Source: Candidatus Enterousia sp.
GTDB taxonomy: Bacteria > Pseudomonadota > Alphaproteobacteria > Rs-D84
Direction: 5' to 3'
DNA: 64,000 bases
Assembly (NCBI GenBank): GCA_045635585.1
Contig: JAZTWA010000001.1
Span: 28-64,027 of the forward strand
Shown: one piece after another, positions 8,892 through 48,496 of the stretch
Layout: each line of letters begins with the position of its first letter
Position numbering within the stretch: position 1 is the first letter of the stretch
Position numbers and translations under genes: made by a program
Notes under the pieces: model-generated
The model's input: only the letters and a program-made list of their open reading frames with translations
The model's database searches: none
Told to the model about the DNA's origin: nothing

Positions 8892-9607
8892 AATTTTTCA
8901 AATTATTGATTGGGTTTCTGTTTCCACCGGTGTGTCCTTTATGTGATACGCCGGTTTCAACACATGGTGAACTATGTGGTGATTGTTGGGTTTCTTTTAA
9001 CTGGATTGATGGTTCTTTTTGTAAACGATGTGGTTATCCATTTGTATCTGATATTGAATTAGATGAAAATGTTTTATGTCCGGTTTGTGCATCTGATAAA
9101 TGTGAATTGGACTGGATACGTTGTGCATGTGTTTATGATGATATGTCGCGTTCTGCGATGTTGCCATTCAAGCATGGTGGACGTGTTGGATATGCGCGTT
9201 TTATGTCACGTGCAATGATTTGGGCATTGCGGGATATTGATGTTGATGTAGATATTGTAATGCCTGTGCCGCTGGCAAATCGTCGTCTGTTCAAACGTGG
9301 TTATAATCAGGCAACGCTTTTGGCGCGTCCGATTGCGCATGTTCTGGGTGTGTCACTGGATGTTGATTCTGTTCGCAGAAAATATCGTGAAGATATGGGA
9401 CATAAGAACGCGCGTGAACGTGCAAGGAATATCCATGGTGTGTTTTCTGTAATCCGTCCTGATAAAATTCGTGGCAAAAAGATTTTGTTGGTTGATGATG
9501 TTATGACAACTGGTGTGACATTTTCAGAATTGCGTAATGCGTTGGTTGATGCAGGTGCCACCGCGGTATATGGCGTAACTTTCTGTCGTGTTGCGCGTGG
9601 AATTTAA
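8885..9607 (+). CDS. comF: ComF-family phosphoribosyltransferase-domain protein
   Basis: N-terminal Cys-cluster (CPLCD...CGDCW...CKRCG...CPVC) and PRTase motif ILLVDDVMTTGVT. Confidence 0.8.
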   Translation: MVKFFKLLIGFLFPPVCPLCDTPVSTHGELCGDCWVSFNWIDGSFCKRCGYPFVSDIELDENVLCPVCASDKCELDWIRCACVYDDMSRSAMLPFKHGGRVGYARFMSRAMIWALRDIDVDVDIVMPVPLANRRLFKRGYNQATLLARPIAHVLGVSLDVDSVRRKYREDMGHKNARERARNIHGVFSVIRPDKIRGKKILLVDDVMTTGVTFSELRNALVDAGATAVYGVTFCRVARGI

Positions 9608-22043: not shown

Positions 22044-22080
22044 GCACGACCAAGCACAGAACTGGCAGTCCCAACGGGAA
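22044..22080 (-). repeat. 37-bp repeat copy overlapping the intact tRNA-Glu 3' end
   Basis: Identical to 21928..21964. Covers 18 nt of the tRNA and 19 nt of flank. Confidence 0.9.
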
Positions 22081-22137
22081 TCGAACCCGTCTTCCCAGAA
22101 TGAGAATCTGGTGTCCTAACCGATAGACGATGGGACC
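22063..22137 (-). tRNA. tRNA-Glu (anticodon CTC), CCA encoded
   Basis: Reverse strand GGTCCCATCGTCTATCGGTTAGGACACCAGATTCTCATTCTGGGAAGACGGGTTCGATTCCCGTTGGGACTGCCA. It folds as a cloverleaf with anticodon loop TTCTCAT. Confidence 0.85.
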
Positions 22138-22224
22138 GTATGAGTTACTGTCCCAGTATTACATAAAAAGAAATAGAATTTCAAATGAAAGTTTTCCTTG
22201 CGCCAAATAAATTTGTTCATTAGT

Positions 22225-22971
22225 ATGCTTTACAACATGGCTGGATCAATACGCAGATTTTTTTCAAATATTGTTTGTGGCTTTATTGCAAATAAAGACA
22301 CGCGTAAACGCGTTCGTGTTATCTTAAATTCTGATATGTTGTCTGCCTTGCGTTTTATCCGTCGAAATACCGGATTGAAATTAACCAAGATAAAAACATT
22401 TGTTGGTTATCAGGCGCGAAATTTGTTAATCAGTGTCAATGATAAATATGTTTTTAAATTTCCGCTTCGTCGTTCGAATTCACGTGAATTAACATTGCGT
22501 GAACAGCGTGTTGTTGATGTGTTTGCGCGTATATCACCAATCTATGTACCGTCTGTTATGGTTTTTGAACATCGTGGTGAATTGGTGCGTCGTTATGAAT
22601 TTATTCGTGGTACACAATTACGCCAGGTGCCATTGGATATTGCCATGGCGAATATTGATAAATTGGCATCACAAATCGCGCAATTTTTATTCACAGTGGG
22701 TATGTCGGATCCTGATGAATTGCGTGATTTAAAACCGTCGCCCGATGCGGTGCCTGGGTATATGTATGGTTGGTTCCAAGGTGATATTTGTGATAACTTT
22801 TTTATTGATACGACAACAATGGAAATTGTTGCGTTTATTGATTGGGAAGATTGTATATTTGGTGATTTTTCAGATTGTGTATATGGGCATAAATGCAGTC
22901 CACAACGTGAATTAATGGCGGCGGTTGGACGTGAATATGATAAACTGTGGTCTATGTATCATGATGCGTAA
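22225..22971 (+). CDS. APH-like phosphotransferase/kinase family protein (start could be 22237)
   Basis: C-terminal FIDWEDCIFGDFSDC resembles the aminoglycoside/choline-kinase family IDWE..GxGD motif. The rest fits a kinase-fold length. Confidence 0.55.
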   Translation: MLYNMAGSIRRFFSNIVCGFIANKDTRKRVRVILNSDMLSALRFIRRNTGLKLTKIKTFVGYQARNLLISVNDKYVFKFPLRRSNSRELTLREQRVVDVFARISPIYVPSVMVFEHRGELVRRYEFIRGTQLRQVPLDIAMANIDKLASQIAQFLFTVGMSDPDELRDLKPSPDAVPGYMYGWFQGDICDNFFIDTTTMEIVAFIDWEDCIFGDFSDCVYGHKCSPQRELMAAVGREYDKLWSMYHDA

Positions 22972-22972
22972 A

Positions 22973-22995
22973 AATGCCTAATTAGGCATTTTTTT
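22973..22995. terminator. Bidirectional terminator
   Basis: Palindrome AATGCCTAATTAGGCATT flanked by A- and T-runs, between convergent genes. Confidence 0.7.
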
Positions 22996-23752
22996 ACTTT
23001 GTGTTATTTATGCCGTTTAGAAGAATTGCTGATTCTTGATTTTTAAGCATCTCGGTTATTTTTATGCGTGTGTCCCTGCGTTTTGTGTTTGCATTTATTT
23101 CCAGTGGATTTTCATCATACAGTTGCAAATCATGTTGTGGGTTTACATAAAACATTTGTGCGTCCTGATTTGTATCTGGATCAATAATACTGATTGATGG
23201 AATGAACATATCTATAAAATGTGTAAGTTCATGTTTTAAATCCATCAAAAAGAATACGGCACTCTTTTGGTAAAATGGATGCTGAAAGTTTATATACAAA
23301 GTTCCGTCACGTGATACACCCATCATTGCACCTGGGATGTTTCTGTCTTGTGTTTCAAGATTTGGAATACTATTAATAATATCCTCTTTGAATGCGGTAT
23401 CAATGGTGTTGTTGGTGTATTTATATTTACTGCCATCGCGATTGTGTAGTTGGACACGATTTTGTAAAATATCATCTTTGATATTATGTATAAAAACCTT
23501 TACGATTTTATCAGTGATAGATATTTTGTCCGCGACTGATTTGGAATCCCAATTATAAAAACTGCCAAATATAGATTTGTCATTACATGCATCAACAAGT
23601 CTTTGTAATAAGTATTCCGAAAATTTTTCTGCGGCATCTGCATCCAGTTTTTTACGAAAAACATCATTTTTTGCCCGCGTCAGTTTGTTCCATTTTTCAG
23701 TGGATTCCATCGCTTCAAGCATTTCAATCATTTTGTTGTGCGAATTATTCAT
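22994..23752 (-). CDS. Hypothetical protein with an HExxH motif (252 aa), no signal peptide
   Basis: LKHELTHFID (HExxH), with a downstream acidic stretch DENPLEINA. Its start lies 3 nt after the stop of the upstream ORF. Confidence 0.55.
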   Translation of the reverse strand: MNNSHNKMIEMLEAMESTEKWNKLTRAKNDVFRKKLDADAAEKFSEYLLQRLVDACNDKSIFGSFYNWDSKSVADKISITDKIVKVFIHNIKDDILQNRVQLHNRDGSKYKYTNNTIDTAFKEDIINSIPNLETQDRNIPGAMMGVSRDGTLYINFQHPFYQKSAVFFLMDLKHELTHFIDMFIPSISIIDPDTNQDAQMFYVNPQHDLQLYDENPLEINANTKRRDTRIKITEMLKNQESAILLNGINNTK

Positions 23753-23755
23753 CGT

Positions 23756-24484
23756 TTATCTTCTTTTTTTACTGTAACGGGCCAGAAATTTATTTATTTG
23801 CGAATTGTTTTCGGGCTGAATATTTTGTTTGTTTTCTATTTTTGTAATATTTGTAATTTTTTGTCTGTTTTTTGTTTTAACGGCGTACAGATTTTGGTTT
23901 TCGCCATTACCCAAGAAAACTTCTTTTAATAAATTGTCATAATTTTTTCGGAAATCTTTATTAGCATGATATAAAAAGTTAGAAATACGCTCGACGATTC
24001 CCGAATGGCTGTTGGGGGTGAATTCTTTCAGACGTGAAAATTTACCGTTTACAGATAACTGTAATGTTTTATTGTCGTTTGTTGTAATTTTAATGTCATC
24101 AAAATTTATGTCATTATTTTTTGCGGCGTCTAAAATCATATCGAACAGAAAATCTTGCATTGCTTCGTAATCCAGTTGCCAATCTGGATACTTAACATCG
24201 TTATAATCAATTTTACATTCTGCAATATATGCGTGCTTTTCTGGGTTGTGTTCCCATGTGTCTTGCATATCTTTTATGTGATTTTGCGTTGCCTGAACAT
24301 TGGTAAAGAAATAATATCCATTACTTTGGCCACCCAAAGCATTTTGTGATGGGTTAAAGTACCCAGTTGTTTTGATTTTATTAAATGCTGCATCATCTAT
24401 GGGTGTGATAACGTGATACAAAGTAATTTGTTTTGCTTTTATCTTATTTGTCGCGGACTTTAACTTTTCTGTTGTGGTATTCAT
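23756..24484 (-). CDS. Hypothetical protein (242 aa), no signal peptide
   Basis: Long ORF with a basic C-terminal tail, tightly coupled to 22994..23752. No known motif. Confidence 0.5.
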   Translation of the reverse strand: MNTTTEKLKSATNKIKAKQITLYHVITPIDDAAFNKIKTTGYFNPSQNALGGQSNGYYFFTNVQATQNHIKDMQDTWEHNPEKHAYIAECKIDYNDVKYPDWQLDYEAMQDFLFDMILDAAKNNDINFDDIKITTNDNKTLQLSVNGKFSRLKEFTPNSHSGIVERISNFLYHANKDFRKNYDNLLKEVFLGNGENQNLYAVKTKNRQKITNITKIENKQNIQPENNSQINKFLARYSKKRR

Positions 24485-24615
24485 TTTTAATGTTTTTTGT
24501 TTGTTTTATTTTGACCAAAATTATAGCAAAAAAAAGCTTAAAAGTCCAGTTCTGTTGAAAAAAGTAATTTTTAAGGAATAGGCTCTATTGTGCAATTCGT
24601 GATGTATAGCAAAAT

Positions 24616-24680
24616 AAAAATGCCCCATGTGGGCATTGTTTTATTCTGGTTGGGGTGTGCGGGCAAAACGCGAACCGAGT
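24616..24680 (-). repeat. Duplicate of the tRNA-Gln 3' end plus terminator hairpin (40 bp perfect, then a decayed tRNA remnant)
   Basis: 24616..24655 AAAAATGCCCCATGTGGGCATTGTTTTATTCTGGTTGGGG is identical to 26264..26303. The next ~25 nt still resemble the tRNA (..GCGG..CGAACC..). Confidence 0.9.
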
Positions 24681-24681
24681 T

Positions 24682-26007
24682 TTACATGTCTTTTCCAGTT
24701 GTTTGTCGTTGTAAAACCATTTCGTTTTGTAAGTATTGTATAATCCCTTGTGGTTGAATAATTTTGTTGTCGCCAGTCTGACCGTTTGATACAGCGGTTT
24801 GTTGTGCAATTTCAAAAAAATGATGCGGTGTCAGATTTGGCGCAACCTGTTTTGCTAATGCATAAACCCCAACTAAATACGGTGTTGACCACGACATGCC
24901 AGAATTTGCTCCGCAATATATATAATCGTCGTTACTTTGGTTTCCGGCGATTGTTCGGCCGCCAGCAGGAACTAACAGGTGTTCGTGCAAATTGTCTTTA
25001 TTTTTCTTCCAAAATCCCACTTCATAAGATTGTATGTCGTCGGGGTTAGAATTCATTTTTCTATCTATTGTTATGAAATTTGCCTTGTCTCCATAAAAAC
25101 GTTCTGAGTCCGTTGTTAAAACCATAACACCGCTGTCAATTAATTGTTTTATTAGTTTCGTGCTTTCTGGGTCTGTACCTAGCATTCCCCAGCTAATTGA
25201 TACGGCAGATATTTTTTTGTCTTGCGGTAATCTGGCGTTCATAAACAAGATTTTACGTAATGCTTTGGCACGATGCGTAAAGTATATTTCTGTTTTTACG
25301 GAAAAAGCCTGTTCTTTTATATCTGGTGGTAAATTTGCAATAATTTGGTTTATTTTATGGCTAAATTCTTCGTCTATTTGATGTCTGTTATTAAGTATGT
25401 CCTTTATTGTTTCATCAAAATCCATATCTTTCGGAAAATATTGTCGCAATACTTTTTGAAAATTCTCATCGGCAAGTGTTCTTTTTATTTTTGTTGCGTT
25501 TGCTGCGAAATAAACAATTTTTGCATCTGGTGCAACGCCAACAGTTTTACCTGCTAATAAACTTGATACTGCCGTCCCATGAATTTGTGCTTCTAGATGT
25601 TCAGGATATCCATTTGATTCATAGTGAATTATGTTGTCTTTTATTTCGCTGTGTTCTGTATTTAATGGCTGGTCTATAATCGCAACGGTTATACCTTTTC
25701 CTGTAATTCCCATTGCATGCAAGTCGCCGATACTTAGTCCCGGGACTTTGCCGTTTTCTAAAACCTGTTCTGGATTAAATCCATCTGGCATTTTATCGAT
25801 AGTTGGAAATTTTGTTTTGCTGTTAAATCTTATGTATGGTAGCTTTTCACCAGCATTGGAAAAGTCAACTTCAGATGCATCGCCATATAAAACAAAAGAT
25901 TGTGAATCTAATTTTGTATCGGTATCAAATTCTGGAATCCGAATGTCGTTTATTGCAATCGGTTTTGCGCCCTTGTTTTTCTTAAATACTGTCAGAAAAT
26001 CCTGCAT
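24682..26007 (-). CDS. Subtilisin-like (S8) serine protease, no signal peptide
   Basis: Catalytic triad contexts ITVAIIDQP (Asp), HGTAVSSLLAG (His) and GMSWSTPYLVGVYAL (Ser). Confidence 0.8.
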   Translation of the reverse strand: MQDFLTVFKKNKGAKPIAINDIRIPEFDTDTKLDSQSFVLYGDASEVDFSNAGEKLPYIRFNSKTKFPTIDKMPDGFNPEQVLENGKVPGLSIGDLHAMGITGKGITVAIIDQPLNTEHSEIKDNIIHYESNGYPEHLEAQIHGTAVSSLLAGKTVGVAPDAKIVYFAANATKIKRTLADENFQKVLRQYFPKDMDFDETIKDILNNRHQIDEEFSHKINQIIANLPPDIKEQAFSVKTEIYFTHRAKALRKILFMNARLPQDKKISAVSISWGMLGTDPESTKLIKQLIDSGVMVLTTDSERFYGDKANFITIDRKMNSNPDDIQSYEVGFWKKNKDNLHEHLLVPAGGRTIAGNQSNDDYIYCGANSGMSWSTPYLVGVYALAKQVAPNLTPHHFFEIAQQTAVSNGQTGDNKIIQPQGIIQYLQNEMVLQRQTTGKDM

Positions 26008-26263
26008 AATGCAACCTCCGCGTATGTTGGTTTATAATTATACCATATATATAGTTCTTGCTGAATGAAAATCAATGCGTTATGCTGGCCGACCACAACC
26101 ATTTTGAATAAAAAGACCAGTTAGAGCAGTTTTTTATTAGTTTTACAATATTATTGCTGGTTCGAATGTTTTTAGTGATTTATTGTTAGTTCGAAAGTGT
26201 TGATAATAACATAATTTTTCTAATTTTAACTTTCGAACTCGTCAAACACTTGTGTTTCAAACA

Positions 26264-26303
26264 AAAAATGCCCCATGTGGGCATTGTTTTATTCTGGTTG
26301 GGG
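26264..26303 (-). repeat. 40-bp repeat copy: terminator hairpin plus the 3' end of the intact tRNA-Gln
   Basis: Identical to 24616..24655. The hairpin AATGCCC-CATGT-GGGCATT is followed by a T-run on the minus strand. Confidence 0.9.
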
Positions 26304-26368
26304 CGCACGGATTCGAACCATGATAAAGAGAACCAAAATCTCTTGTCCTACCATTAGACGACACCCCA
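26295..26368 (-). tRNA. tRNA-Gln (anticodon TTG), CCA encoded
   Basis: Reverse strand TGGGGTGTCGTCTAATGGTAGGACAAGAGATTTTGGTTCTCTTTATCATGGTTCGAATCCGTGCGCCCCAACCA. It folds as a cloverleaf and resembles the E. coli tRNA-Gln pattern. Confidence 0.88.
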
Positions 26369-26417
26369 ATTGCGTCAGTGATTATAAACATATTTTAATA
26401 AAAAGCAATAATATTTT

Positions 26418-27029
26418 TTATCTGCTTCGCATTTTATATTGTGTCTGATTATTTATTTTGTCTTGGGTTTTATCAAATTCAATTTGGGCGCGCGTGCGAA
26501 TATTGTGTTGAATCAAGAATTCTTCTTGGCTCAATATATATTTTTGTTGGCCGGCTGAATCCAGTGATGCGATTTCGCGTCCGCGCATTGTTGAAAAGAA
26601 ATCCGGTTTATATCCGTATTCCCATGACAGACGAATTCTGTCGCCGTCCCACAGACATGCGGAAACGCCATTTGGTGCGTTTTGTCCAATTGTGTGTTTG
26701 GCGACGGCATCCAATATTTGTTCGGTGTCTGACTTTGATAATTGTGGATAGTGCATTGATAAAAATTTTTGACCAACTGGAACGGCGTCTGGTCCGTGAT
26801 TTACACACCATGCGTCATTTGTTCTGGCGCAATCGTGCAGTGCTGCCGCCAATATTGCGGGTAATGGATCTTGGTTTATGTGTTGTGCAATATCAATTGC
26901 AAACATTGCAACCTGAATAGTATGTGATAGGCCATGATAACCATATCGAGACTGGTTGGTTACGTATTCGATTTTTGGTAAGATGTCATCAAAGAATAGT
27001 TTTGTGTATTTTATTCGAATGTTTGACAT
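26418..27029 (-). CDS. HD-domain phosphohydrolase family protein
   Basis: GLSHTIQV...AAALHDCAR gives the H...HD signature. Confidence 0.65.
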   Translation of the reverse strand: MSNIRIKYTKLFFDDILPKIEYVTNQSRYGYHGLSHTIQVAMFAIDIAQHINQDPLPAILAAALHDCARTNDAWCVNHGPDAVPVGQKFLSMHYPQLSKSDTEQILDAVAKHTIGQNAPNGVSACLWDGDRIRLSWEYGYKPDFFSTMRGREIASLDSAGQQKYILSQEEFLIQHNIRTRAQIEFDKTQDKINNQTQYKMRSR

Positions 27030-36392: not shown

Positions 36393-37124
36393 ATGACACG
36401 ATATCGGGTAAATCTTGAATATGATGGAACAAATCTAATTGGTTGGCAAGAAAATCGCCAAGGTCCATCTGTTCAATCTGTTGTCAAAGATGCAATTGAA
36501 AAATTTTGTGGTGCGCGCCCCGATGTTGTTGGGGCGGGGCGTACTGATGCGGGGGTGCATGCAATTTCTATGGTTGCACACTTTGATATTGATGGTGAAC
36601 ATAGTGCGCAAACTGTAATGCGTGCGTTGAATTTTTATTTGGTTGGCATGCCTGTGGCTGTGACTGATTGTGAAATTGCAAGTGATGAATTTCATGCGCG
36701 TTTTGATTGTGTTGCACGTCATTATCGTTATGTGGTTTTAAATCGTGGTGCATCGCCTGTGTTGCAAAAGAATCGTGTTTATTGGGTTCCGCGCAGATTA
36801 AATATTGATGCGATGCGTGCTGCCGCGGACAGATTGATTGGCAATCATGATTTTACCAGTTTTCGTGCATCAGAATGTCAGGCAAAGTCGCCGGTAAAAA
36901 CGTTGGATAAAATCGAAATTATTACAGATGGTGATATGATATATTTTGATTTTTCTGCGCGTTCATTTTTACATCATATGGTGCGTAATATTGTTGGAAC
37001 CTTGGTTGAAATTGGTTTGGGTAAACCATATGATATTGATGAAATTTTGAATGCAAAAAATCGCAGTGCTGCGGGACCAACGGCGCCATCTGCGGGATTG
37101 TATTTCGTTCGTGCAGATTATTAA
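36393..37124 (+). CDS. truA: tRNA pseudouridine(38-40) synthase
   Basis: GAGRTDAGVHA catalytic Asp motif; RSFLHHMVRNIVG. Confidence 0.93.
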   Translation: MTRYRVNLEYDGTNLIGWQENRQGPSVQSVVKDAIEKFCGARPDVVGAGRTDAGVHAISMVAHFDIDGEHSAQTVMRALNFYLVGMPVAVTDCEIASDEFHARFDCVARHYRYVVLNRGASPVLQKNRVYWVPRRLNIDAMRAAADRLIGNHDFTSFRASECQAKSPVKTLDKIEIITDGDMIYFDFSARSFLHHMVRNIVGTLVEIGLGKPYDIDEILNAKNRSAAGPTAPSAGLYFVRADY

Positions 37125-39061
37125 TGCCAACGTCGATTGTTTGGAATATATTTTATACGTCCACTGGGGTATATAACAAATCCATTGCGCAAAATTTTGT
37201 CGTCGCATTTTGATGATGTGATATCAAAATAAGAAACAATATAGTCAATATCAGGATTGTTGCATAAATCAACAATATTGTTCATCAGTGGAACAAATTT
37301 TTGAATATATACTAAATGCCAATTTTCTGTTTTGAAATCATATATGCCTTTATCGTGTTTAATACGTATGTTTTTGGTGTTTGTATCTTGACCATGGAAT
37401 TTCTTCCATGTATCAAAAGCAAAGTAATGATTTGATGCGCGCGATTTGTTAAATTTTATTGTATTATCAGAATCTATAAACGCAATCAATTCATGGTCAT
37501 GCGTCACCATAAATATTGGTTTTATGTTTGTGCAAACAATCGTAATTGCGATTGCTTGCAAGATAGAAAATAAAATATAGTTTATCTTAATTCTGATTGG
37601 TCGAATTAATATCAAAGACATAAATCCGATTATTGAAATTATAATTGCAGAATTGGGTATGTGTGGAATATTCAGTGTTGCATATGGCAAATCAGTAATA
37701 TTCTTTGCAATTTGTAAAGTTACATCATAAATACTGCTTGCAAATTTTATCGGTGCAAACAAACCCATGGTTGCCGCAATAACACCAATCATTACCAGTG
37801 GCATAATTGCCAATGAAAATATTGGTAATAATATTATGTTGCCAATAATTGAATATATCGGTATTGCGCCAAAATGTGCTGCAACAAAAGGCAAAGTAAA
37901 CAGTGTCGCCACGAAAGTGGTTAATATCATTGCATATATGATTCTAAATATTTTGTTCTTTGGCATTTTGGGTTTGATAACACTGTACAACCAAACCAAT
38001 CCAAATACTGCGGCAAAAGACAATTGAAATCCCGCTTGCATGACATAATGTGGATTAATCAGAAAGATGATACAAAATACCAATGCAACATTACGCAGCG
38101 ATATGGCCGTACGTCCAAATATAAATGCCATAAATACCAAAGTTGTCATTAAAAATGCCCGCATTGTTGCCACATCAATTCCGGATAAAAATAAATAAAA
38201 TATTAAACCAACCCATGCGCAAATTGTTGCAGGTACACGTGCGGGCAACCTGCGTGTTATATATGGAATTGAACGAAATATCAGCATGAATATAGTAAAT
38301 AACCAACCGCCTACCAGCGTCATATGAAAACCACTGATTGACCAAACGTGTCCAATGCCCACCGCGGTCCATATTTCTTTGTCTGATTTTGGGATTACAT
38401 TTTTGTATCCTAATACCAATCCATCAACCAAGAAAGAATCTGATAATTTATGTAAATTATTTCTTAAATCATTTACGAATCTAAATTTTTGTTTGTGTTC
38501 CAAAACATCTATTGCTGTAACATACCCTGTTGCGGTCAGATTGTTAAAATACGCCCATCGTGCATAGTCAAATTCATCTGGTACATATGATTTAGTTGGT
38601 TGAAATAAATTTATATTTGTTCGAATTTTATCGCCAATATTTGGTGCGACAAGCCCGTCACCCAAAGATACACGCACAAGTGTATTCTTGCTTTCCGCGT
38701 TAATTTCATTTGCATCAATTGATAAATATAATCTGGTGCCTTTATCGGTATAATCAGTTGATACCACATCTGCAATTAATTCCAAATTGTGTACATCGTG
38801 TTTTAATTTGGGTGTATCAATAAAATTTGTAAATGTTGCCGCATAAAAGAAACCAAACAGCATTAACATTATTGCACGCACCAAATATGGAATACGTGGA
38901 ATCCAAATACAAATTGCCAATATTAACGTGATAACGTATTTAAATTGTAAATCGGGTTCATGACCCATTGTAAAATACAACGCTGCGCCCATTGCTATTA
39001 AAAAAGGCACATATAAAAACACATTTTGAATCTGATTGTTAAACCATTTGCGCATACCCAA
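37121..39061 (-). CDS. comEC: ComEC/Rec2-family DNA internalisation channel protein
   Basis: 646 aa polytopic membrane protein with the ComEC competence-domain pattern (...GISGFHMTLVGG...). Confidence 0.8.
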   Translation of the reverse strand: MGMRKWFNNQIQNVFLYVPFLIAMGAALYFTMGHEPDLQFKYVITLILAICIWIPRIPYLVRAIMLMLFGFFYAATFTNFIDTPKLKHDVHNLELIADVVSTDYTDKGTRLYLSIDANEINAESKNTLVRVSLGDGLVAPNIGDKIRTNINLFQPTKSYVPDEFDYARWAYFNNLTATGYVTAIDVLEHKQKFRFVNDLRNNLHKLSDSFLVDGLVLGYKNVIPKSDKEIWTAVGIGHVWSISGFHMTLVGGWLFTIFMLIFRSIPYITRRLPARVPATICAWVGLIFYLFLSGIDVATMRAFLMTTLVFMAFIFGRTAISLRNVALVFCIIFLINPHYVMQAGFQLSFAAVFGLVWLYSVIKPKMPKNKIFRIIYAMILTTFVATLFTLPFVAAHFGAIPIYSIIGNIILLPIFSLAIMPLVMIGVIAATMGLFAPIKFASSIYDVTLQIAKNITDLPYATLNIPHIPNSAIIISIIGFMSLILIRPIRIKINYILFSILQAIAITIVCTNIKPIFMVTHDHELIAFIDSDNTIKFNKSRASNHYFAFDTWKKFHGQDTNTKNIRIKHDKGIYDFKTENWHLVYIQKFVPLMNNIVDLCNNPDIDYIVSYFDITSSKCDDKILRNGFVIYPSGRIKYIPNNRRWH

Positions 39062-41115: not shown

Positions 41116-41138
41116 ATCCCCATATTTGGGGATTTTTT
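41116..41138. terminator. Bidirectional terminator between pyk and the Stealth gene
   Basis: AATCCCC-ATATTT-GGGGATT flanked by A- and T-runs. Confidence 0.75.
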
Positions 41139-42141
41139 ATTTTTCAAATTCGCATTTTTTTGGAAATCTTGAATTTAAAAAAGAATAATTGTTTAATCGA
41201 TTTTCTTCTGTTGAATTTATAGAATCGTTTATACAAAATATTGGTGGTTTTTGATTCTGTAAATTTGATAGTATTGCATCAGTACAATAAACAGGCGAAT
41301 TTTTAATACTATGCCAATATATTGTATTGTATAAAAAATTAATTAAACGGTTTTTTGTACGTTTTTTATTTCTAGCGCGTATAAATACTGATTTGCCAAA
41401 GATTTTATCAAATAAACTAAATATAGTCCGTTGAATTTCATTATTTTGGCGAAAGCGATTGGATAACTGTGCGTCGATACACCCAGTTATCAAAGGGTGT
41501 TTTCTGCATCTGTTCCATGTTGATTTACGATAAGGGTCGATTCCATGTGACGGCATATATTTATACAATTTCTTACCAAATACGTCATAAATTTTTCTTT
41601 GTGACACAAAGATACATTGTTGATAATCATTTTTTCGAACAATATATCGTTCGATGTTTTTGTAATTGCCTCGTCTTTTATTGTATCTGAATTTTGCACG
41701 TCCGCGTCTATCAAAAAAGAAGTCAGGATTTAATTCGCGGTTAAAAAAAGTATCATCATTTGCCAAGATGAAATATTCGCCCAACGCCTTGATGTTTCCG
41801 ATACACATTTCGATATTTGTTGAATTAAAAGTTGGTAATGCGTGTAACGGCATAATATCTTTGTGTGGCACAATTGTGATTTTAGGATGATTCACATTCA
41901 ACCATTTTGGTATTTGATTAAATCCGGTAATTATAAAAATATGATTTATCCATGGAACACATTCTGCGACACTTCTCAAAGAATATTTTAATTCATCATT
42001 ATCTCGCCATCGTGCATTTGATGTTGCACTGTGTGACAAGTTTGTTTTGGTACATGTAAATTCCAACCATTTTTGTTTTTCTTGTATCCATTGTGGGTCA
42101 TTACTATCAACCCACAGATACACCAAGTCAATTTTGTTCAT
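41137..42141 (-). CDS. Stealth-family hexose-1-phosphoryl transferase-like protein
   Basis: CR1 IDLVYLWVDSNDPQW and CR2 RDNDELKYSLRSVAECVPWINHIFIIT. Start trimmed to MNKIDL. Confidence 0.8.
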   Translation of the reverse strand: MNKIDLVYLWVDSNDPQWIQEKQKWLEFTCTKTNLSHSATSNARWRDNDELKYSLRSVAECVPWINHIFIITGFNQIPKWLNVNHPKITIVPHKDIMPLHALPTFNSTNIEMCIGNIKALGEYFILANDDTFFNRELNPDFFFDRRGRAKFRYNKRRGNYKNIERYIVRKNDYQQCIFVSQRKIYDVFGKKLYKYMPSHGIDPYRKSTWNRCRKHPLITGCIDAQLSNRFRQNNEIQRTIFSLFDKIFGKSVFIRARNKKRTKNRLINFLYNTIYWHSIKNSPVYCTDAILSNLQNQKPPIFCINDSINSTEENRLNNYSFLNSRFPKKCEFEK

Positions 42142-42429
42142 TTTATATCCCTTTTTATACCAACAAAAAAACCGTCGAAATATTGACGGTCGGGTATTTC
42201 CAAGGTCACAAAACAAATGACTCTGTGGTTTTTGGTTTAACCTATTGTATCACCACAGATACCCGACCATATCCAGTCAGGTATATCAACGTACATACTG
42301 CACGTGACAAATTCATTTTTTTACGATGTTGAATTTTTGTTTTCATCGTGTTTTGCGGATCTTGGGAATCCGGAACCTTATACTATATAAAAGATTCAAC
42401 ACGTATTATGAAGTATAAAAAAAGAAAAT

Positions 42430-43365: not shown

Positions 43366-43392
43366 TAAAAAAAGTGCGCAAAAAATGCGCAC
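43366..43392 (-). terminator. Second rho-independent terminator downstream of the virB10-like gene
   Basis: On the minus strand: GTGCGCA-TTTTT-TGCGCAC followed by a T-run. Confidence 0.6.
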
Positions 43393-43447
43393 AATATATG
43401 GATATGTTTTATATATTATTTAAATCCTTTTGGTTTGTATTGTTTAT

Positions 43448-43470
43448 TAAAAAACCCGCCATTGGCGGGT
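43448..43470 (-). terminator. Rho-independent terminator directly after the virB10-like gene
   Basis: On the minus strand: CCCGCC-AAT-GGCGGG followed by TTTTTT. Confidence 0.75.
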
Positions 43471-43475
43471 TAAAT

Positions 43476-45917
43476 TTATTCTGCGTTTACCACAATCGGT
43501 GGGAAACAGTCGCCACCACCTTCGGGGCAACAATTGAAACCCATTTCACCCATATCAGTAAATATTTCACCGGCGCAGCAACCATTTGCATCTGGCATTG
43601 AACCGTCTAAGCATGTTAATACTTCTTCTGCTGGGGCAACTTCATCTGCGACTGGTGTGTCAAATGGATTTACAACATATCCTTCATCGTCATATGTAAT
43701 ACCAATCATTTCATCATATGCGGCTTGCTGTTCTTCTGTTCGATCACCTTCGGTGCCATATGTATCTTGATACTTTTTAACCTCGCTTTGATGATATGCA
43801 TCTTGCTGTATCTGTGTTTTCGATTGATAGTTCAAAGATTCACAGAATGTCTTTAATGAGCGATAATCGTATCCGCCACACTGATTTCCTGTGCATTCGG
43901 CTTTGACGCGCCATAAATCCTTAGAGTCTTGTTCACAATAATCAGTCATATTAAATGAACGTGCCTGACCAACCCAATCTGAACCGCTTCTATCAACCGT
44001 CACTTTATCCATAACAGAGTTATAGTCAAATCTTCTTTGTCCCCTTGATCTGTTTGCATACTTTTCAACATAGCATTTCTTTGATTCATCTGTGCATGCA
44101 ACAATTAAGTCTTCTGGCGAATAAACGGTTATACGTGTTCCTGCGGCGATTGTAAATGGTGGCACTGTGTTATCCATCATATCAACCATTAATTTTTGTG
44201 CAATTTGATTCCATGTTGTAATAATTTCATTTTTCGCCAATTCTGATGAACGCATTGTACCACTTTGAACAACAGTATTATTGTCCAAATCAATTTGGTT
44301 AACAAATGCATCACTGATTGGTGCGATCAAGTTTATCGCTGCGGGCACCATCGCTGTAATCATTGGCATAAAGAATTGTTCGATGTAATCTGTACTGCCG
44401 CGACCTGGGACACCAACGCGTCCTTGGCTATCACCTGAATATGGTTGGCTGCCTTCAGAGTTAAAATTAAATTCAACACCATCTGGTCTGATAAATTGAT
44501 ACCAATTAATTTCCATACGTCCAATTGATTTATATGGCCCCGGCAAATTACCCGTAACATATCCCAGCATCAGTGTTCCAGCGGGGATAATAATATTGCG
44601 CCCATTATCAGAATATACGTTCCTATCAACCGTTGCGCGTACTGGTAATGGCTTGCCTTTTTCGTAAACATCTGCGTCGGCGCGAACGTCGGATACAATT
44701 GTGGCCGGAATTGGTTTGAATTGACGTAAAACAAAACTTCTATCATATGGCTGTGACGCAACAATAGCGGTATCATCACCCGATGTTCCGCGGAATTCGG
44801 ATTCTTCGTCGCGTTTTTTTAATATGTCTTCACCGCCATCCATCCCACGTAACATACCACCGCTGTCAGATGGGGTGTCCAATTGAACGGCACGATTAAC
44901 TGTTTTTACCGCAGGCGCATTACTAAGTTGTGGCAACACACCCGATGAAATGGCCGAATAACCAATATGTTCTGCATCTGTTCCGATTTTTTTACCACTT
45001 TTGTCTGTGATAATACCATTATCTGGGTTGTATGTTCCGGCGGGTTCGTTGCATTCTGTATCCGAAAAAGGATGGTATTTGTACGCACCACCCGATGGTT
45101 TTATCCAACCAATTTGTTTGCCCGAATTTCCATATGCAGGAAAAGCAAAGTCGGAACAAGTTTCAACGGGTCTGACATAATTATCCACTGGTTCTTCTTG
45201 GAATTTAACCGACGGTGCCAATGATTCTAATTCGCGTTTAATGTTTTGTTTTGTCGAAGATACTGTTACCGGTTCTGGTTCTTCGTATTCGTATTCGTAT
45301 TCATCTATTTCTGGTTCTTTAATTTGTTCTGATTTTACCATTGGTTCTGCAACCGGTTCTGGCTGTTTTACTGGTTCTGGAACCACAACCGGTTCTGGTT
45401 TTTGTTCTACAACAGGCAATGTTGCACCCAATGTTACAACGATTTTTGATGTTTTGTTCATTGAATCAGATTCATCTGCATCATGCCATTGTATGTTAAC
45501 TGGAACCTGTGTAATACCCAATGCCGCGGTGGGTGCAAATGACATCGCCACATTACAAGACAATTCATCGTTTATCTGGCCCATGCCAACACATGTATCT
45601 GTAACAGAAAAACCATTAACATCAGATTCTGTGCCCACAGAAACTATTTTTATTGGCGCGCTGGCAGTGATTTTAACGGTTGTTTTTTCAGAGTTACCAA
45701 CCACCACATCGCCCCAGTTAATCATATCGGGTGCAATATTTATTTCGATTGGTGCCTTAGCCACAATCTGTGGTTTTGAATCATCGTTTCCCAAAACCAA
45801 GATTAATAAAATAATCACAACAACAAACGCCACAACCATCAGCAACCATTGAATATGCTTTGGCGTATTTTTGCGCATTTCAGCAAATTGTTGTTTTAAT
45901 TTTTTCATATCACACAT
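43476..45917 (-). CDS. virB10: VirB10/TrbI-like T4SS core protein with extra domains (813 aa; alternative start 45908)
   Basis: N-terminal TM anchor. Pro-rich linker PEPVVVPEPVKQPEPVAEP. TrbI/VirB10 core: IIIPAGTLMLGYV...GRMEINWYQFIRPDGVEF...GRVGVPGRGSTDYIEQFF...PPFTIAAGTRITVYSPEDL. Plus an N-proximal beta-rich module and a ~200-aa Cys-rich tail. Confidence 0.8.
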   Translation of the reverse strand: MCDMKKLKQQFAEMRKNTPKHIQWLLMVVAFVVVIILLILVLGNDDSKPQIVAKAPIEINIAPDMINWGDVVVGNSEKTTVKITASAPIKIVSVGTESDVNGFSVTDTCVGMGQINDELSCNVAMSFAPTAALGITQVPVNIQWHDADESDSMNKTSKIVVTLGATLPVVEQKPEPVVVPEPVKQPEPVAEPMVKSEQIKEPEIDEYEYEYEEPEPVTVSSTKQNIKRELESLAPSVKFQEEPVDNYVRPVETCSDFAFPAYGNSGKQIGWIKPSGGAYKYHPFSDTECNEPAGTYNPDNGIITDKSGKKIGTDAEHIGYSAISSGVLPQLSNAPAVKTVNRAVQLDTPSDSGGMLRGMDGGEDILKKRDEESEFRGTSGDDTAIVASQPYDRSFVLRQFKPIPATIVSDVRADADVYEKGKPLPVRATVDRNVYSDNGRNIIIPAGTLMLGYVTGNLPGPYKSIGRMEINWYQFIRPDGVEFNFNSEGSQPYSGDSQGRVGVPGRGSTDYIEQFFMPMITAMVPAAINLIAPISDAFVNQIDLDNNTVVQSGTMRSSELAKNEIITTWNQIAQKLMVDMMDNTVPPFTIAAGTRITVYSPEDLIVACTDESKKCYVEKYANRSRGQRRFDYNSVMDKVTVDRSGSDWVGQARSFNMTDYCEQDSKDLWRVKAECTGNQCGGYDYRSLKTFCESLNYQSKTQIQQDAYHQSEVKKYQDTYGTEGDRTEEQQAAYDEMIGITYDDEGYVVNPFDTPVADEVAPAEEVLTCLDGSMPDANGCCAGEIFTDMGEMGFNCCPEGGGDCFPPIVVNAE

Positions 45918-45967
45918 CCCAAAATAAATGTTTTATATTATCCCGATATATCAATGTATCAGAATTT

Positions 45968-47491
45968 TTACTGCATTCTGACGACACTGCAACTGGTACC
46001 ACTGAATTTTAATAATTTATCACACAGTGTTTGTGCAGTTTCGATATTTGCCAATGGTCCAATGCGCAAACGATATTGACGTGCTGCGGATGATGTAGAA
46101 CCCAAATCGCCAACACCTTGTTCGTCAACCGCAAAGAATACCATGTTTTTATATGGTGTTAACAGACCTTGTCCTTCTTCACCACTAAATTTCGCCAACA
46201 GATTCGCCCAATAATCGTCCAATGCCTTGACAGACGTATCTGATGCTAATTCAACAGCAACCCCTGATTGATTACTGGATATCAATGGGATATTTGTTTG
46301 TGGTAAATATGCGCCTGCGGTATTTCTTTGTGCGGGCAACATGTTTACAACACTACCTGAACCAGACGTTGGCATTGTTTGTGGTACTGTGAAACCGGCC
46401 GGCATATAATAACCTGCGCCTGTCGATTGGTTAACATTGCCCGATACGCCTGAATAAATTGGTGTTCCTGTGTATGGCATGCCCATGCTCATTGCGGCCA
46501 TGCTATCTGTGTATGCAATATTGCTAAGTGATTGACCTGACAGCATGCTTTGTGCAACATTTGCTTCGGCCAATGCCATCACAGATGCAGTATCTGCAAT
46601 CAAGAATGGTTTTTCACGTTTTTTGATGCATACAATTCTTTGACCACTACGCAGAACCATGTCGCCCACCGCTTCAACAATTAATAATCTGCCGTCTTCA
46701 CCATCTGTTCTGAATCCAACCGGTGATTCCCCACCTTCGACCAACAATGATACAACAGGACGTTGGGTCATTGCGATAACCTTGTCGCCAAAGTCAATAT
46801 ATGTAAATATTCTGTCGCGCCATACGCGTTCTGGGGCGATTACATAGTCGTCTGGATTTGGAACAAAAATATCCAAGTCAAATCTGAATTCTGATGGATC
46901 AATTTTCATTGATTTAATCCATCCGTAATCTTCGCCGTCAACACCAACCGTATTGGACTTTGTGGCCGCTTTTTTAAAGATTGAACCCGCGGCGCCAGTT
47001 GACTTTGCGGTGGCTACATTTGGTAATGCAGCGTTCCCATCCAGTGTTATATCCACCTGTGAATATGTGATTTCACTGGAATTTGATGGTTCTGCGCGCA
47101 GATAAAATATGTATTTGTTGCCCGATGCGCCCGTAACAATCATATTGGTATCAGAACCTTGGTTCGAAGTTTGTGGGGACAAGAACATTGTTCTGTCACC
47201 TTGGGTTGCATCAATATCGAATTGAGCTTGGTCGCCGACGACGATATCTGCAATTTGTTCGCCGTTTGGTAACGTCAACATCGTAACCATACCATTACGT
47301 AACTTGATTGGTAAAACAGAACCCGACGACCATGCCAACTGGGCATATCCTGGTTTAAGGCTGCCGGCGGCCATGTTCGCGGTTGGATTATCCCATGCTT
47401 CTTGAATGCCAACTGCATATGCTGGCAATGCCAAAATGCTGGTCAAACATAATGTAATAAAATTAAATCTGAATGCTTTTACAAAACTCAT
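45968..47491 (-). CDS. virB9: VirB9/TrbG/CagX-like T4SS core protein with a SPOR-like C-terminal domain (507 aa)
   Basis: Signal peptide. N-domain LPNGEQIADIVVGD...TNMIVTGASGNKYIFYLRA. C-domain PERVWRDRIFTYIDFGDK...LLIVEAVGDMVLRSGQRIVCIKK. Tail QYRLRIGPLANIETAQTLCDKLLKFSGTSCSVV resembles SPOR. Confidence 0.8.
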   Translation of the reverse strand: MSFVKAFRFNFITLCLTSILALPAYAVGIQEAWDNPTANMAAGSLKPGYAQLAWSSGSVLPIKLRNGMVTMLTLPNGEQIADIVVGDQAQFDIDATQGDRTMFLSPQTSNQGSDTNMIVTGASGNKYIFYLRAEPSNSSEITYSQVDITLDGNAALPNVATAKSTGAAGSIFKKAATKSNTVGVDGEDYGWIKSMKIDPSEFRFDLDIFVPNPDDYVIAPERVWRDRIFTYIDFGDKVIAMTQRPVVSLLVEGGESPVGFRTDGEDGRLLIVEAVGDMVLRSGQRIVCIKKREKPFLIADTASVMALAEANVAQSMLSGQSLSNIAYTDSMAAMSMGMPYTGTPIYSGVSGNVNQSTGAGYYMPAGFTVPQTMPTSGSGSVVNMLPAQRNTAGAYLPQTNIPLISSNQSGVAVELASDTSVKALDDYWANLLAKFSGEEGQGLLTPYKNMVFFAVDEQGVGDLGSTSSAARQYRLRIGPLANIETAQTLCDKLLKFSGTSCSVVRMQ

Positions 47492-47524
47492 ATCTATCCT
47501 TCCATTCTTTTTGCGTTCTTATAT

Positions 47525-48205
47525 TTATGGCAAGAAACCTGTATCCAATGGGTCGCCGTTATCAGACAAGATTTCGTATCCTGTTACGTGCAACCCCAAC
47601 GGGTTGTCAATGCGATCGGCCCATTTTACGCGAACGTCATCGTTTTGCCCCAATTTTATTTTTATTGTATAATCTTTTGGGCTGGTTGGTCCAGTGTTAT
47701 CTTCACAAAAATAGCGAATTTTTACCTGATATACATCTTGTTGTCTTGATTCAGATACCAATTTCATTGGTTGCTTGTCCAAGAATCCGACGTTGCATCT
47801 GAAATCAAAGTTTGGCATACCACTCATCATCGCGTTAAACATTTGTGTGTCTGCAAATTGTGCATACACGTCATTTGTTGACCAGTTTTTTACGATTCCG
47901 CTTTCTGTGCCCCATTTTTTCTGCATAACCTTTGCGTTTGTCAGAACTTCATTACGTGCACGAACATATTCGCGAATAAAGGCCCCTTTGTAAATGTCCA
48001 GATTTTCGTCTTGGGGCGGCATTTCGACCAGTTTTATGTCTTGGTTGTCGCGTACTTCGGTCGTCAAGAAAAAAACCTGGGGTCTGTTCAACGGAAACAT
48101 ATTTGTTATTGTTAATACCAATACGCCCAAAACAACAACCGCACTTGCTAACACAAATGTCATCAGTCTGGATATTAAAATTGGCGGTTCTACGCGGTTT
48201 TGCAC
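47525..48205 (-). CDS. virB8: VirB8/TrbF-like bitopic T4SS protein (226 aa, GTG start)
   Basis: GTG at 48203..48205, preceded by AAGGAGAGG. One TM helix. FIREYVRARNE, and the conserved NPxG motif in RIDNPLGLHVTGYEI. The longer track ORF would overlap tRNA-Trp. Confidence 0.8.
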   Translation of the reverse strand: MQNRVEPPILISRLMTFVLASAVVVLGVLVLTITNMFPLNRPQVFFLTTEVRDNQDIKLVEMPPQDENLDIYKGAFIREYVRARNEVLTNAKVMQKKWGTESGIVKNWSTNDVYAQFADTQMFNAMMSGMPNFDFRCNVGFLDKQPMKLVSESRQQDVYQVKIRYFCEDNTGPTSPKDYTIKIKLGQNDDVRVKWADRIDNPLGLHVTGYEILSDNGDPLDTGFLP

Positions 48206-48230
48206 GAATTCCTCTCCTTGTGTTAAAGTG

Positions 48231-48260
48231 ATTGTAGAAAAAAACACACCACCTGCGCAA
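48231..48260 (-). promoter_or_regulatory. Candidate promoter of the virB8-9-10-like operon
   Basis: On the minus strand: TTGCGC, 18 nt, TACAAT, just upstream of the RBS. Confidence 0.3.
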
Positions 48261-48422
48261 GAAAAAATTTGCAAAATCAAAATCCTAAATATAAAAAGGT
48301 GTTTTAAAATGTTCTTGCGCAAAGAAATGAAAAATATTATAATATTTCCGCTTGCTTTTTTGTATTGGTGTGCTATCCTTTCGCAGACTATGTGGTGGTA
48401 TATCATATATGCAACAGGCAAC

Positions 48423-48496
48423 AGGGGCATAGTTCAACGGTAGAATATCGGTCTCCAAAACCGCGGATGAGGGTTCGATTCCTTCTGCCCCTGCCA
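48423..48496 (+). tRNA. tRNA-Trp (anticodon CCA)
   Basis: AGGGGCATAGTTCAACGGTAGAATATCGGTCTCCAAAACCGCGGATGAGGGTTCGATTCCTTCTGCCCCTGCCA is close to E. coli tRNA-Trp. Canonical position upstream of secE-nusG. Confidence 0.92.

Follow-up and report, generated by a model that had tools for sequence, protein, structure and literature searches.

Candidatus Enterousia sp. (order Rs-D84, Alphaproteobacteria) carries three adjacent genes, resembling virB8, virB9 and virB10, that are predicted to encode the envelope-spanning core of an old, chromosomal and vertically inherited VirB-like type IV secretion system (T4SS). This trio lies on a stretch of 64,000 nt from the organism (the window), on which all coordinates below are given. 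An initial inspection of the window made without database searches (the sequence-only reading) had described the genes as a closed operon and had offered three explanations for it: one piece of a scattered T4SS, a core scaffold repurposed without its motors, or the envelope part of an uptake machine. These explanations can now be narrowed. Descent of the trio from a complete VirB-like machine is shown by related loci, and a scattered machine and a motorless core are both serious candidates. With a probability of about 0.5, we favor the view that the trio forms the channel of a multi-locus T4SS, the VirB4 motor, the pilin and the inner-membrane parts of which would be encoded elsewhere in the genome of about 0.9 Mb, in the style of the Rickettsiales vir homolog (rvh) system.

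The genomes of Candidatus Enterousia and Rs-D84 measure 0.75-1.0 Mb and lack the synthesis of amino acids, nucleotides and lipids, respiration, and standard transporters, and a partner-dependent life has been proposed for Rs-D84 (PMC12306168). A T4SS is not mentioned in that paper, and a literature search gave no paper on a T4SS of Enterousia or Rs-D84.

Three diverged members of the VirB8, VirB9 and VirB10 families

The three genes are read in the same direction on the minus strand in the order VirB8-VirB9-VirB10, with 33 nt between VirB8 and VirB9 and about 59 nt between VirB9 and VirB10 (Table 1). Their assignment to the T4SS core, first made by eye, was upheld by profile searches in which all three proteins exceeded the Pfam gathering scores, and by AlphaFold2 (AF2) models of VirB9 and VirB10 that found T4SS proteins in Foldseek searches. 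VirB8 matches its Pfam family with an E-value of 1e-8 (35.7 bits against a cut-off of 23.2) over profile positions 5-210 of 213, VirB9 with 3e-23 (83 bits, cut-off 34.2) and VirB10 with 1e-16 (61.6 bits, cut-off 35). The motifs that the sequence-only reading had quoted are present in the translations, namely NPLG in VirB8, NMIVTGASGNKYIFYLRA and IFTYIDFGDK...LRSGQRIVCIKK in VirB9, and the TrbI core motifs IIIPAGTLMLGYV...INWYQFIRPDGVEF in VirB10. NCBIfam models gave 15.9 bits for VirB8 (equivalog cut-off 188) and 57 bits for VirB9 (equivalog cut-off 218), while VirB10 scored 60.9 bits with the VirB10 model (cut-off 220), 46.4 bits with the ComB10 model (cut-off 300) and 26 bits with choice-of-anchor D. 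When all solved structures were searched by sequence, VirB10 alone had matches, the best being Helicobacter pylori ComB10 (2bhv, E 9e-4), followed by CagY and TrwE; VirB8 and VirB9 had none. Scores that exceed the Pfam gathering values, together with weak equivalog and structure-database scores, indicate that the three proteins are real, strongly diverged members of their families. For VirB8, a score of 15.9 against 188 points to a family member and not to an ortholog of a named VirB8.

VirB8 consists of a 12-residue cytoplasmic tail, a single transmembrane (TM) helix (residues 9-33) and a periplasmic VirB8 domain in which NPLG represents the NPXG motif. It thus has the N-terminal TM helix, the periplasmic NTF2-like domain and the motif of a bitopic inner-membrane VirB8. 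The family is expected to have a cytoplasmic tail of about 40 residues, and that of Enterousia has 12. The start residue is the same in the ortholog of another Enterousia locus (L002). The sequence-only reading had held all three genes to be atypically long or decorated. This applies to VirB9, with its SPOR domain, and to VirB10, with its ASH-like domain and Cys-rich tail, and does not apply to VirB8, which has 226 residues and a short N terminus; the 301-aa open reading frame (ORF) runs into the tRNA gene. The judgment that the operon is not a textbook copy was sound in view of the SPOR fusion, the VirB10 decorations and NCBIfam scores far under the equivalog cut-offs.

VirB9 comprises a signal peptide, an N-terminal domain (residues 30-150), a C-terminal domain (residues 195-292), a tether (residues 295-406) and a SPOR domain (residues 411-505). 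The protein is thus predicted to be secreted and has the I-layer and O-layer beta-sandwich domains of the VirB9/CagX family. Its AF2 model has a mean predicted local distance difference test (pLDDT) score of 70, with about 90 in the folded domains and about 85 in SPOR, and the tether of about 110 residues is modeled as disordered. Foldseek searches with this model found the VirB9 of Xanthomonas citri (6gyb_B, E 6e-17), R388 TrwF, DotH, 8rt6_B, 2ofq and 2n01, and the target-normalized TM-score to 7o3t_B was 0.77.

The SPOR fold, a binder of denuded glycan strands, spans about 75 residues in an RNP-like beta-alpha-beta-beta-alpha-beta arrangement. In VirB9 the SPOR profile PF05036 gives 20.5 bits (E 6e-4), slightly below the cut-off of 21, and it passes the threshold in several orthologs. 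The modeled domain aligns with the SPOR domain of RlpA (6i09_A) at a target-normalized TM-score of 0.69. On these profiles and models the C-terminal domain of VirB9 belongs to the SPOR family, and glycan binding is predicted for it. The VirB9 proteins of distant relatives have the domain too, as seen from full-length alignments and from a faint PF05036 match in one of them (L081). A literature search for VirB9 with SPOR found no paper.

VirB10 begins with an 18-residue cytoplasmic tail and a TM helix (residues 19-40), followed by an ASH/PapD-like beta-sandwich (residues 56-163) and a Pro/Glu-rich linker. Its C-terminal part contains a small beta domain (residues 256-310), the TrbI barrel (residues ~381-601) and an extension that ends in the Cys-rich tail. 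The TM anchor, the linker and the barrel with a two-helix antenna are those of the VirB10/TrbI family. The AF2 model has a mean pLDDT of 60 and is confident in the beta-sandwich, and the barrel helices 507-539 and 554-578, which occupy the position of the outer-membrane antenna, have low pLDDT in this monomer model. Foldseek matched the model to VirB10 (6gyb_C), CagY, TrwE, TraF and ComB10, and matched the sandwich to ASH, PapD and MSP domains; one VirB10 homolog carries the ASH profile PF15780. The columns C766-P804 of the Cys-rich tail are invariant in 62 sequences. The tail was not found in VirB10 from outside Enterousia, where BLAST alignments end by query residue ~600-650. Conservation in VirB10 is concentrated in the TrbI domain, the small domain (residues 256-340) and the Cys-rich tail, while the ASH-like domain and the linkers are variable.

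By analogy with the solved systems of R388, pKM101 and X. citri, VirB10 would extend from an anchor in the inner membrane through the periplasm to the pore in the outer membrane, which would be built from the TrbI barrel and the antenna helices. The C-terminal domain of VirB9 would wrap around the VirB10 barrel as the O-layer, its N-terminal domain would form the inner layer, and VirB8 would make periplasmic arches over the inner membrane. The tethered SPOR domain could tie this ring to the peptidoglycan and may replace the missing VirB7 lipoprotein.

A conserved operon at a fixed chromosomal position

The trio appears to be a self-contained operon, bounded by a candidate promoter and two hairpin terminators. 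Species-level counts in this text refer to 80 loci, with flanks of ±10 kb, out of 202 species in which a relative was found. The earlier claim of a transcriptionally closed unit agrees with the conservation of the promoter candidate beside tRNA-Trp, the -10 hexamer and the -35 core of which are kept at 90% or more over the 80 Enterousia loci, the outer -35 bases being less conserved. A simple consensus scan missed this promoter because its -35 element matches only three of six bases. Both terminators were likewise confirmed, and 56 of the 80 loci have a hairpin with a T-run no more than 130 nt from the stop codon of VirB10. The upstream edge of the operon is formed in nearly all species by the block of genes running from tRNA-Trp to rpoC. 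A Rfam scan of the window found only three tRNAs and a 5S fragment, and no regulatory RNA at the trio operon. Between tRNA-Trp and the VirB8 promoter lies a block of about 65 nt that is kept at 90% or more in the 80 species and contains TATTATAAT. It may be a divergent tRNA-Trp/secE promoter or a regulatory site that is common to this gene block and the T4SS operon.

Relatives of VirB9 are numerous. A search returned 1130 close homologs, the best 120 of which are 76-97% identical and about 505-518 residues long. A scan of one genome per species found VirB9 relatives in 202 species, all from animal or human gut, that are labeled 'Candidatus Enterousia sp.', 'Alphaproteobacteria bacterium' or 'uncultured Rickettsiales'. 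The trio is intact in 80 of 80 loci, with all three reading frames preserved everywhere. In nearly all of them the order is rpoB-rplL-rplJ-rplA-rplK-nusG-secE-tRNA-Trp, VirB8-VirB9-VirB10 and two small ORFs, and in most the convergent genes yidC-lspA-kef-rsmA-recR-dacC come next. One Enterousia-type locus, with a VirB9 that is 76% identical, stands in a record named 'Bacteroides fragilis isolate ... cleanbin_000047' (L070, CAVGNU010000001.1), which is probably a mislabeled or contaminated bin.

Median identity to the proteins of the window is 81% for VirB9, 57% for VirB8 and 53% for VirB10, compared with 86% for SecE, 90% for NusG and 94% for L11. The conservation of VirB9 across species is close to that of SecE. 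It is highest in residues 195-320, the O-layer domain and the next helix, where identity per block is 0.95-1.00. A median of 2 of the 126 residues differ in this segment (maximum 5), yet 49 of the 126 third codon positions (39%) do, and in L11 8 of 143 residues differ. From these codon-level comparisons, purifying selection on the segment is extreme and stronger than on L11.

The shared position and the conservation of the trio show that it is a functional, vertically inherited chromosomal operon and neither a mobile element nor a remnant. The trio does adjoin a tRNA gene, a common integration site, and its T4SS gene set is incomplete, as would be expected of an integrative and conjugative element or plasmid that had inserted beside tRNA-Trp and decayed. 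However, the position is the same in every locus, no integrase, relaxase or repeats were found in the flanks of the 80 loci, the frames are intact, purifying selection is stronger than on L11, and the GC content of the trio resembles its surroundings. We regard such an origin as highly improbable and reject it on synteny and selection.

Related loci and the origin of the trio

An exhaustive search of representatives at 50% identity gave 485 related clusters, several of which are full-length relatives that include the SPOR part, at 37-49% identity. In four loci (L081, L087, L090 and L100) such full-length VirB9-SPOR relatives, 34-45% identical, stand among other VirB genes. L081 has VirB4, five genes, VirB8, a 66-aa lipoprotein, a further VirB8, VirB9, a 2717-aa VirB10 and VirB11. 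L087 has VirB2, VirB3, VirB4, four genes, VirB8, VirB9 and VirB10, and L090 and L100 have an order of the same kind, adjoined in back-to-back arrangement by a cluster for a type IVb pilus. In L085, ComM is followed by lipoprotein-VirB8-VirB9-VirB10-VirB11, a tRNA-synthetase gene on the opposite strand, and ComEC. In L088 a lipoprotein gene is among those that precede VirB8 and VirB9, an unnamed gene separates VirB9 from VirB10, and the stretch seen has no ATPase.

The small lipoproteins of these relatives are considered VirB7-like because they have a lipobox and the motif ELKxSPCAC in common. By NCBIfam their ATPases are VirB4 and VirB11 in preference to TrbE and TrbB, yet they score below the ortholog cut-offs. 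The unnamed genes between VirB4 and VirB8 match no VirB5 or VirB6 profile. Over all relatives the composite gene set is VirB2-VirB3-VirB4-(four to five unnamed genes)-VirB7-like-VirB8-VirB9-VirB10-VirB11. The VirB10 proteins of two relatives are giants, of 2717 residues in L081 (11611-19764) and 1507 residues in L085 (11563-16086), with TrbI at the far C-terminal end.

These VirB-rich loci show that the trio descends from a complete VirB-like machine of an undescribed alphaproteobacterial family, and in Enterousia the core has come apart from that VirB module. L082 and L083 contain rpsB-tsf-VirB8-VirB9-VirB10 as an isolated trio, and L082 is the closest relative outside Enterousia (VirB9 42% and VirB10 36% identical, with a VirB8 tail of ~17 residues). 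Three further loci (L103-L105) contain VirB2-VirB3-VirB4 and five genes, followed by unrelated genes, without VirB8-VirB10; the machine can therefore be split within this family. The T4SS genes of L103 likewise stand back to back with a cluster for a type IVb pilus. The pilus cluster of the relatives consists of TcpQ, secretin, PilO and an ATPase.

An assignment of L103 to Enterousia by composition was considered. Its GC content (0.52) and tetranucleotide distance (0.024) bring it nearest to the high-GC Enterousia loci L069, L076 and L057. This distance is outside the within-genome range of 0.012-0.019, and L103 was not assigned to the genus. The VirB4 proteins of L103 and L081 share 81% identity, and L081 carries an adjacent VirB9 itself. 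The high identity argues that L103 belongs to the L081 lineage.

A scattered machine or a core without motors

The multi-locus T4SS that we favor has a precedent in Rickettsia, where the rvh genes are passed on vertically and form an 'archipelago of five islets' (PMC2653234). Within the genus Enterousia, the best-conserved part of VirB8 is its tail and TM helix (the N-terminal 20 residues), at 0.78 against 0.29-0.64 elsewhere in the protein. The tail and TM helix of VirB10 have a conservation of 0.58-0.63, against 0.24-0.43 for the periplasmic ASH domain. This conservation suggests that inner-membrane or cytoplasmic partners persist. A machine split in this way would act in contact with a partner or host cell of this metabolically dependent bacterium.

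Several results weigh against this arrangement. The first is the gene content around the trio. The sequence-only reading had noted no VirB2-VirB6, VirB11, VirD4 or relaxase gene in the window, and no further T4SS gene came from Pfam profiles on 36 ORFs of the window or from tblastn with the VirB2, VirB3, VirB4, VirB7 and VirB11 proteins of the relatives and their unnamed intervening proteins, run against the window and the 80 loci. The tblastn matches were VirB8, VirB9, VirB10 and ComEC only. VirB4, VirB11, VirD4, VirB2, VirB3, VirB6-like and VirB7-like genes were found neither in the 64-kb window nor within ±10 kb of the trio in the 80 species. VirD4 and relaxase genes were absent from the window, from the 80 loci and from the inspected stretches of the relatives' loci.

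The second is the small number of VirB4 matches. A profile of two relatives' VirB4 proteins retrieved only 380 proteins, where VirB9 gave 1130 and VirB10 gave 894. Four clades make up the best 120 of the 380. Loci sampled from the three large clades have contexts of their own, and none was shown to be Enterousia. Among the relatives, VirB4 is 60-73% identical where VirB9 is 41-47% identical. An Enterousia VirB4 is thus expected to be ~55-70% identical to the query and to stand near the top of the list.

The third is the state of VirB8 and VirB10. Relatives with VirB4 or VirB11 at the locus have VirB8 tails of 43-54 residues, about 30 N-terminal residues more than the Enterousia protein, and the motif E(R/K)RYLWTARAF of their VirB8 is missing from it. 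In R388 the N-terminal tails of VirB8 contact VirB4 (PMC12857230). Enterousia VirB8 is 22-29% identical to the VirB8 of relatives, which are 42-48% identical among themselves, and Enterousia VirB10 is 24-36% identical to theirs. This low identity suggests a change of constraints.

The same results fit a repurposed core that, in Enterousia and perhaps also in the nearest relative that has an isolated trio, has lost VirB4, VirB11, the pilin, VirB3/VirB6 and VirB7 and has kept the outer-membrane complex and VirB8. Such a core would be a peptidoglycan-anchored conduit or scaffold that moves material between the bacterium and a partner cell, either passively or with power from another machine, for example the ATPases of type IV pili or an uptake system linked to ComEC. 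This reading would account for the lack of partner genes near the trio, for the mere 380 VirB4 matches and the assignment to other lineages of the clades sampled among the best 120, and for the loss from VirB8 of all but 12 tail residues and of the VirB4-linked juxtamembrane motif. Relatives carry a VirB7-like lipoprotein beside VirB8, whereas none stands near the trio. Strong divergence of VirB8 and VirB10 on the Enterousia stem was followed by tight constraint, as would be expected had their function changed, and L082 combines the two traits of an isolated trio and a short VirB8 tail.

We nevertheless rate the repurposed core as the less probable of the two arrangements, though a serious competitor. 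We know of no functional T4SS without a VirB4-family ATPase, the single component regarded as universal. T4SSs without VirD4 exist, and ComB lacks VirB11 as well (PMC12857230). The conserved tails and TM helices of VirB8 and VirB10 within the genus point to inner-membrane or cytoplasmic partners. The VirB4 evidence comes from the best 120 of 380 matches, and flanks of ±10 kb and a window of 64 kb amount to a minor fraction of each genome. In other small alphaproteobacterial genomes, a scattering of T4SS genes is the rule. The most far-reaching form of the idea, that all motors, the pilin and the inner-membrane channel were discarded and VirB8-VirB9(SPOR)-VirB10 became a free-standing conduit for DNA or metabolites from a partner, the first T4SS-derived machine without VirB4, is put forward a little more tentatively still.

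Some proteins encoded near the trio in other Enterousia species were noted during these searches. At the end of L032 (20186-21484, minus strand) is a gene for a protein of 432 residues that bears a signal peptide and multiple TM helices and is VirB6/TrbL-like in layout by eye; it has no Pfam or NCBIfam match and no similarity to the T4SS proteins of the relatives. L022 (12127-13440), and likewise L039, encodes a protein of 437 residues that begins like a prepilin and weakly matches Shufflon_N (PilV, a type IVb pilin), which suggests that Enterousia has type IV pilus components. Secreted proteins of 701-1163 residues stand beside the trio region in L020 (15855-18047), L022 (6584-10075), L032 (15232-17337) and L043 (16554-18860). 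They have an N-terminal part rich in Arg, Ser and Thr and many Cys residues (C..QY..CMD.FC), recur across Enterousia species, and match no family.

DNA uptake as a possible function

Either genetic scenario could serve DNA uptake of the ComB kind, in which the core would pass double-stranded DNA over the outer membrane and ComEC would import it as a source of nucleotides. Our estimates for the two scenarios and for uptake are not meant to sum to one, uptake being a reading of function. The window encodes ComEC, with Competence and DUF4131 domains, 4.4 kb downstream of VirB10, as well as a ComF-like protein with a double zinc ribbon and a phosphoribosyltransferase domain. The presence of ComEC indicates that the inner-membrane DNA-uptake channel was kept in this reduced genome.

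The support for uptake proposed by the sequence-only reading is circumstantial. It consists of the ComB10 structure 2bhv as the best sequence match of VirB10, of ComEC and ComF in the window, and of the L085 cluster, which has ComM immediately upstream and ComEC downstream past a single opposite tRNA-synthetase gene. VirD4 and relaxase are absent from the related loci; ComB is likewise without VirD4 and hands DNA to ComEC (PMC12857230). Nucleotide synthesis is missing from the Rs-D84 genomes (PMC12306168). These points are offset by others. VirB10 scores higher with the VirB10 model than with ComB10, the relatives have VirB11, which ComB lacks, and only 3 of 81 Enterousia sequences have ComEC near the trio, so that this linkage is not a conserved one. 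ComB depends on ComB4, for which no gene was found in the window or the flanks. The type IVb pilus and secretin cluster of the relatives is a more usual route of DNA uptake. Uptake is rated as an unlikely function.

Neighboring genes and other features of the window

Two small ORFs, X and Y, lie just past the VirB10 terminators in the same direction as the trio. X is present in 71 and Y in 65 of the 80 Enterousia loci, with median identities of 67% and 49%, and C19, H24 and C85 of Y are invariant. Neither has a signal peptide or TM helix, and neither matches Pfam, NCBIfam or a solved structure, profiles included. Both were considered as parts of the operon and set aside as neighbors, since they are located behind the terminators.

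A Stealth-family gene stands between the trio region and pyruvate kinase and is found at that place in only a few of the 80 loci. Three tandem paralogous proteins with signal peptides (335, 310 and 361 residues) have similar C-terminal ends and no family match. A stretch of low GC content (about 0.355) encodes an APH-like kinase, two unknown ORFs, a subtilase-like protein of 441 residues and an HD-domain protein, and may be a genomic island. The contig begins inside a rRNA operon.

Table 1. Coordinates of the trio, its parts and other features on the 64,000-nt window.
Feature	Position	Strand	Details
VirB8-like gene, 226 aa	47525..48205	-	Pfam PF04335; GTG start at 48205 behind Shine-Dalgarno GGAGAGG (48217-48211)
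VirB9-like gene, 507 aa	45968..47491	-	Pfam CagX/VirB9 PF03524
Near-invariant VirB9 segment, aa 195-320	46532..46909	-	O-layer domain and next helix; 80 species
SPOR (peptidoglycan-binding family) domain, predicted, VirB9 C terminus	45977..46261	-	Pfam, AF2, Foldseek
VirB10-like gene, 810 aa	43476..45908	-	ATG start at 45908; Pfam TrbI/VirB10 PF03743
Cys-rich VirB10 tail	43497..43628	-	C..DG..PDANGCC.GE.YTDMGE.GFNCCPE.GGDCFPP
Candidate sigma-70 promoter of the trio	48231..48260	-	-35 TTGCGC 48260-48255, 18-nt spacer, -10 TACAAT 48236-48231
Two tandem intrinsic-terminator-like hairpins with T-runs, 3' of VirB10 stop	43374..43471	-	hairpins at 43471-43453 and 43392-43374
tRNA-Trp, divergent neighbor of the trio	48423-48496	+	starts tRNA-Trp-secE-nusG-rplK-rplA-rplJ-rpoB-rpoC block
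Conserved block between tRNA-Trp and VirB8 promoter	48330-48395		
ORF X, 113 aa	42829-43170	-	
ORF Y, 115 aa	42430-42777	-	
Stealth-family protein	41137-42216	-	CR1, CR2, CR4; capsule-type hexose-1-phosphoryl transferase family
ComEC	37121-39061	-	
ComF-like gene	8885-9607	+	
Low-GC stretch, possible island	22063-27029		around tRNA-Glu 22063-22137 and tRNA-Gln 26295-26368
Three tandem paralogous genes	14375-17531	+	
5S rRNA fragment	1-102	+	cut at 5' end

Significance and comparison with known systems

Enterousia is a widespread, species-rich and uncultured gut lineage, and at least 202 of its species carry the operon. How Enterousia gets the compounds it needs is a puzzle (PMC12306168). The trio ranks with the best-conserved loci, housekeeping genes aside, in the neighborhood of the ribosomal and RNA-polymerase genes, and readily suggests itself as a candidate contact machine. 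If the split is true, this would be the second alphaproteobacterial case of a scattered, vertically inherited T4SS, with new accessories. A genuine loss of the motors would disprove the rule that no T4SS can do without VirB4. The protein families themselves are known. No description was found in the literature of the organism-wide role of the core, its separation from the ATPase genes, the fusion of VirB9 to SPOR, the ASH-like domain and Cys-rich tail of VirB10, or the short VirB8 tail, and these features appear to be new.

The rvh system resembles the trio in its gene organization. It too is a chromosomal, vertically inherited VirB-like system of a small-genome, host-dependent alphaproteobacterium, and its genes are spread over several loci (PMC2653234) with VirB8-9-10 kept together. 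In contrast, the rvh core operon runs on into virB11-virD4, whereas two terminators and unrelated genes follow VirB10 in Enterousia. In rvh, VirB4, VirB8 and VirB9 are duplicated and VirB6 is present in five versions; the Enterousia locus has a single VirB8 and a single VirB9. The virB8-9-10-11-virD4 operon, the duplications and the several virB6 genes that mark rvh membership are thus absent from this locus, and neither a VirB9-SPOR fusion nor a VirB10 with an ASH domain and a Cys-rich tail is described for rvh.

The minimal P-type core (VirB/D4, R388 Trw, pKM101 Tra and the X-T4SS of X. citri) shares with Enterousia the VirB9 domains, the barrel and antenna folds of VirB10, a one-TM VirB8 with NPXG and the gene order B8-B9-B10. 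Unlike it, the Enterousia locus has no VirB7 and no linked ATPase genes, and its VirB9 has a SPOR domain of its own. Enterousia VirB10 has roughly double the usual number of residues, the tail of VirB8 has 12 residues instead of ~40, and the scores are 16, 57 and 61 bits against equivalog cut-offs of 188, 218 and 220 for VirB8, VirB9 and VirB10.

The ComB system of H. pylori has its comB6-10 operon apart from comB2-4, is without VirD4 and relaxase, and works with ComEC (PMC12857230). However, it has ComB4, ComB2/3, ComB6 and ComB7, none of which was found near the Enterousia trio, and the similarity of VirB10 to ComB10 is marginal (E 9e-4).

The closest counterparts are the T4SSs of the relatives (L081, L085, L087, L088, L090, L100 and L103). 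They have the same VirB9 layout of N-terminal domain, C-terminal domain, tether and SPOR, an ASH-like N-terminal domain in VirB10, and VirB8. Several of them differ in having VirB2, VirB3, VirB4 or VirB11 in the core locus (L081, L085, L087, L090 and L100), and in having the VirB7-like lipoprotein with ELKxSPCAC and a long-tailed, often duplicated VirB8, none of which stands beside the Enterousia trio. The Cys-rich tail of VirB10 was added in Enterousia. On the strength of these shared architectures, the Enterousia trio is placed in this undescribed T4SS family of uncultured gut and environmental Alphaproteobacteria.

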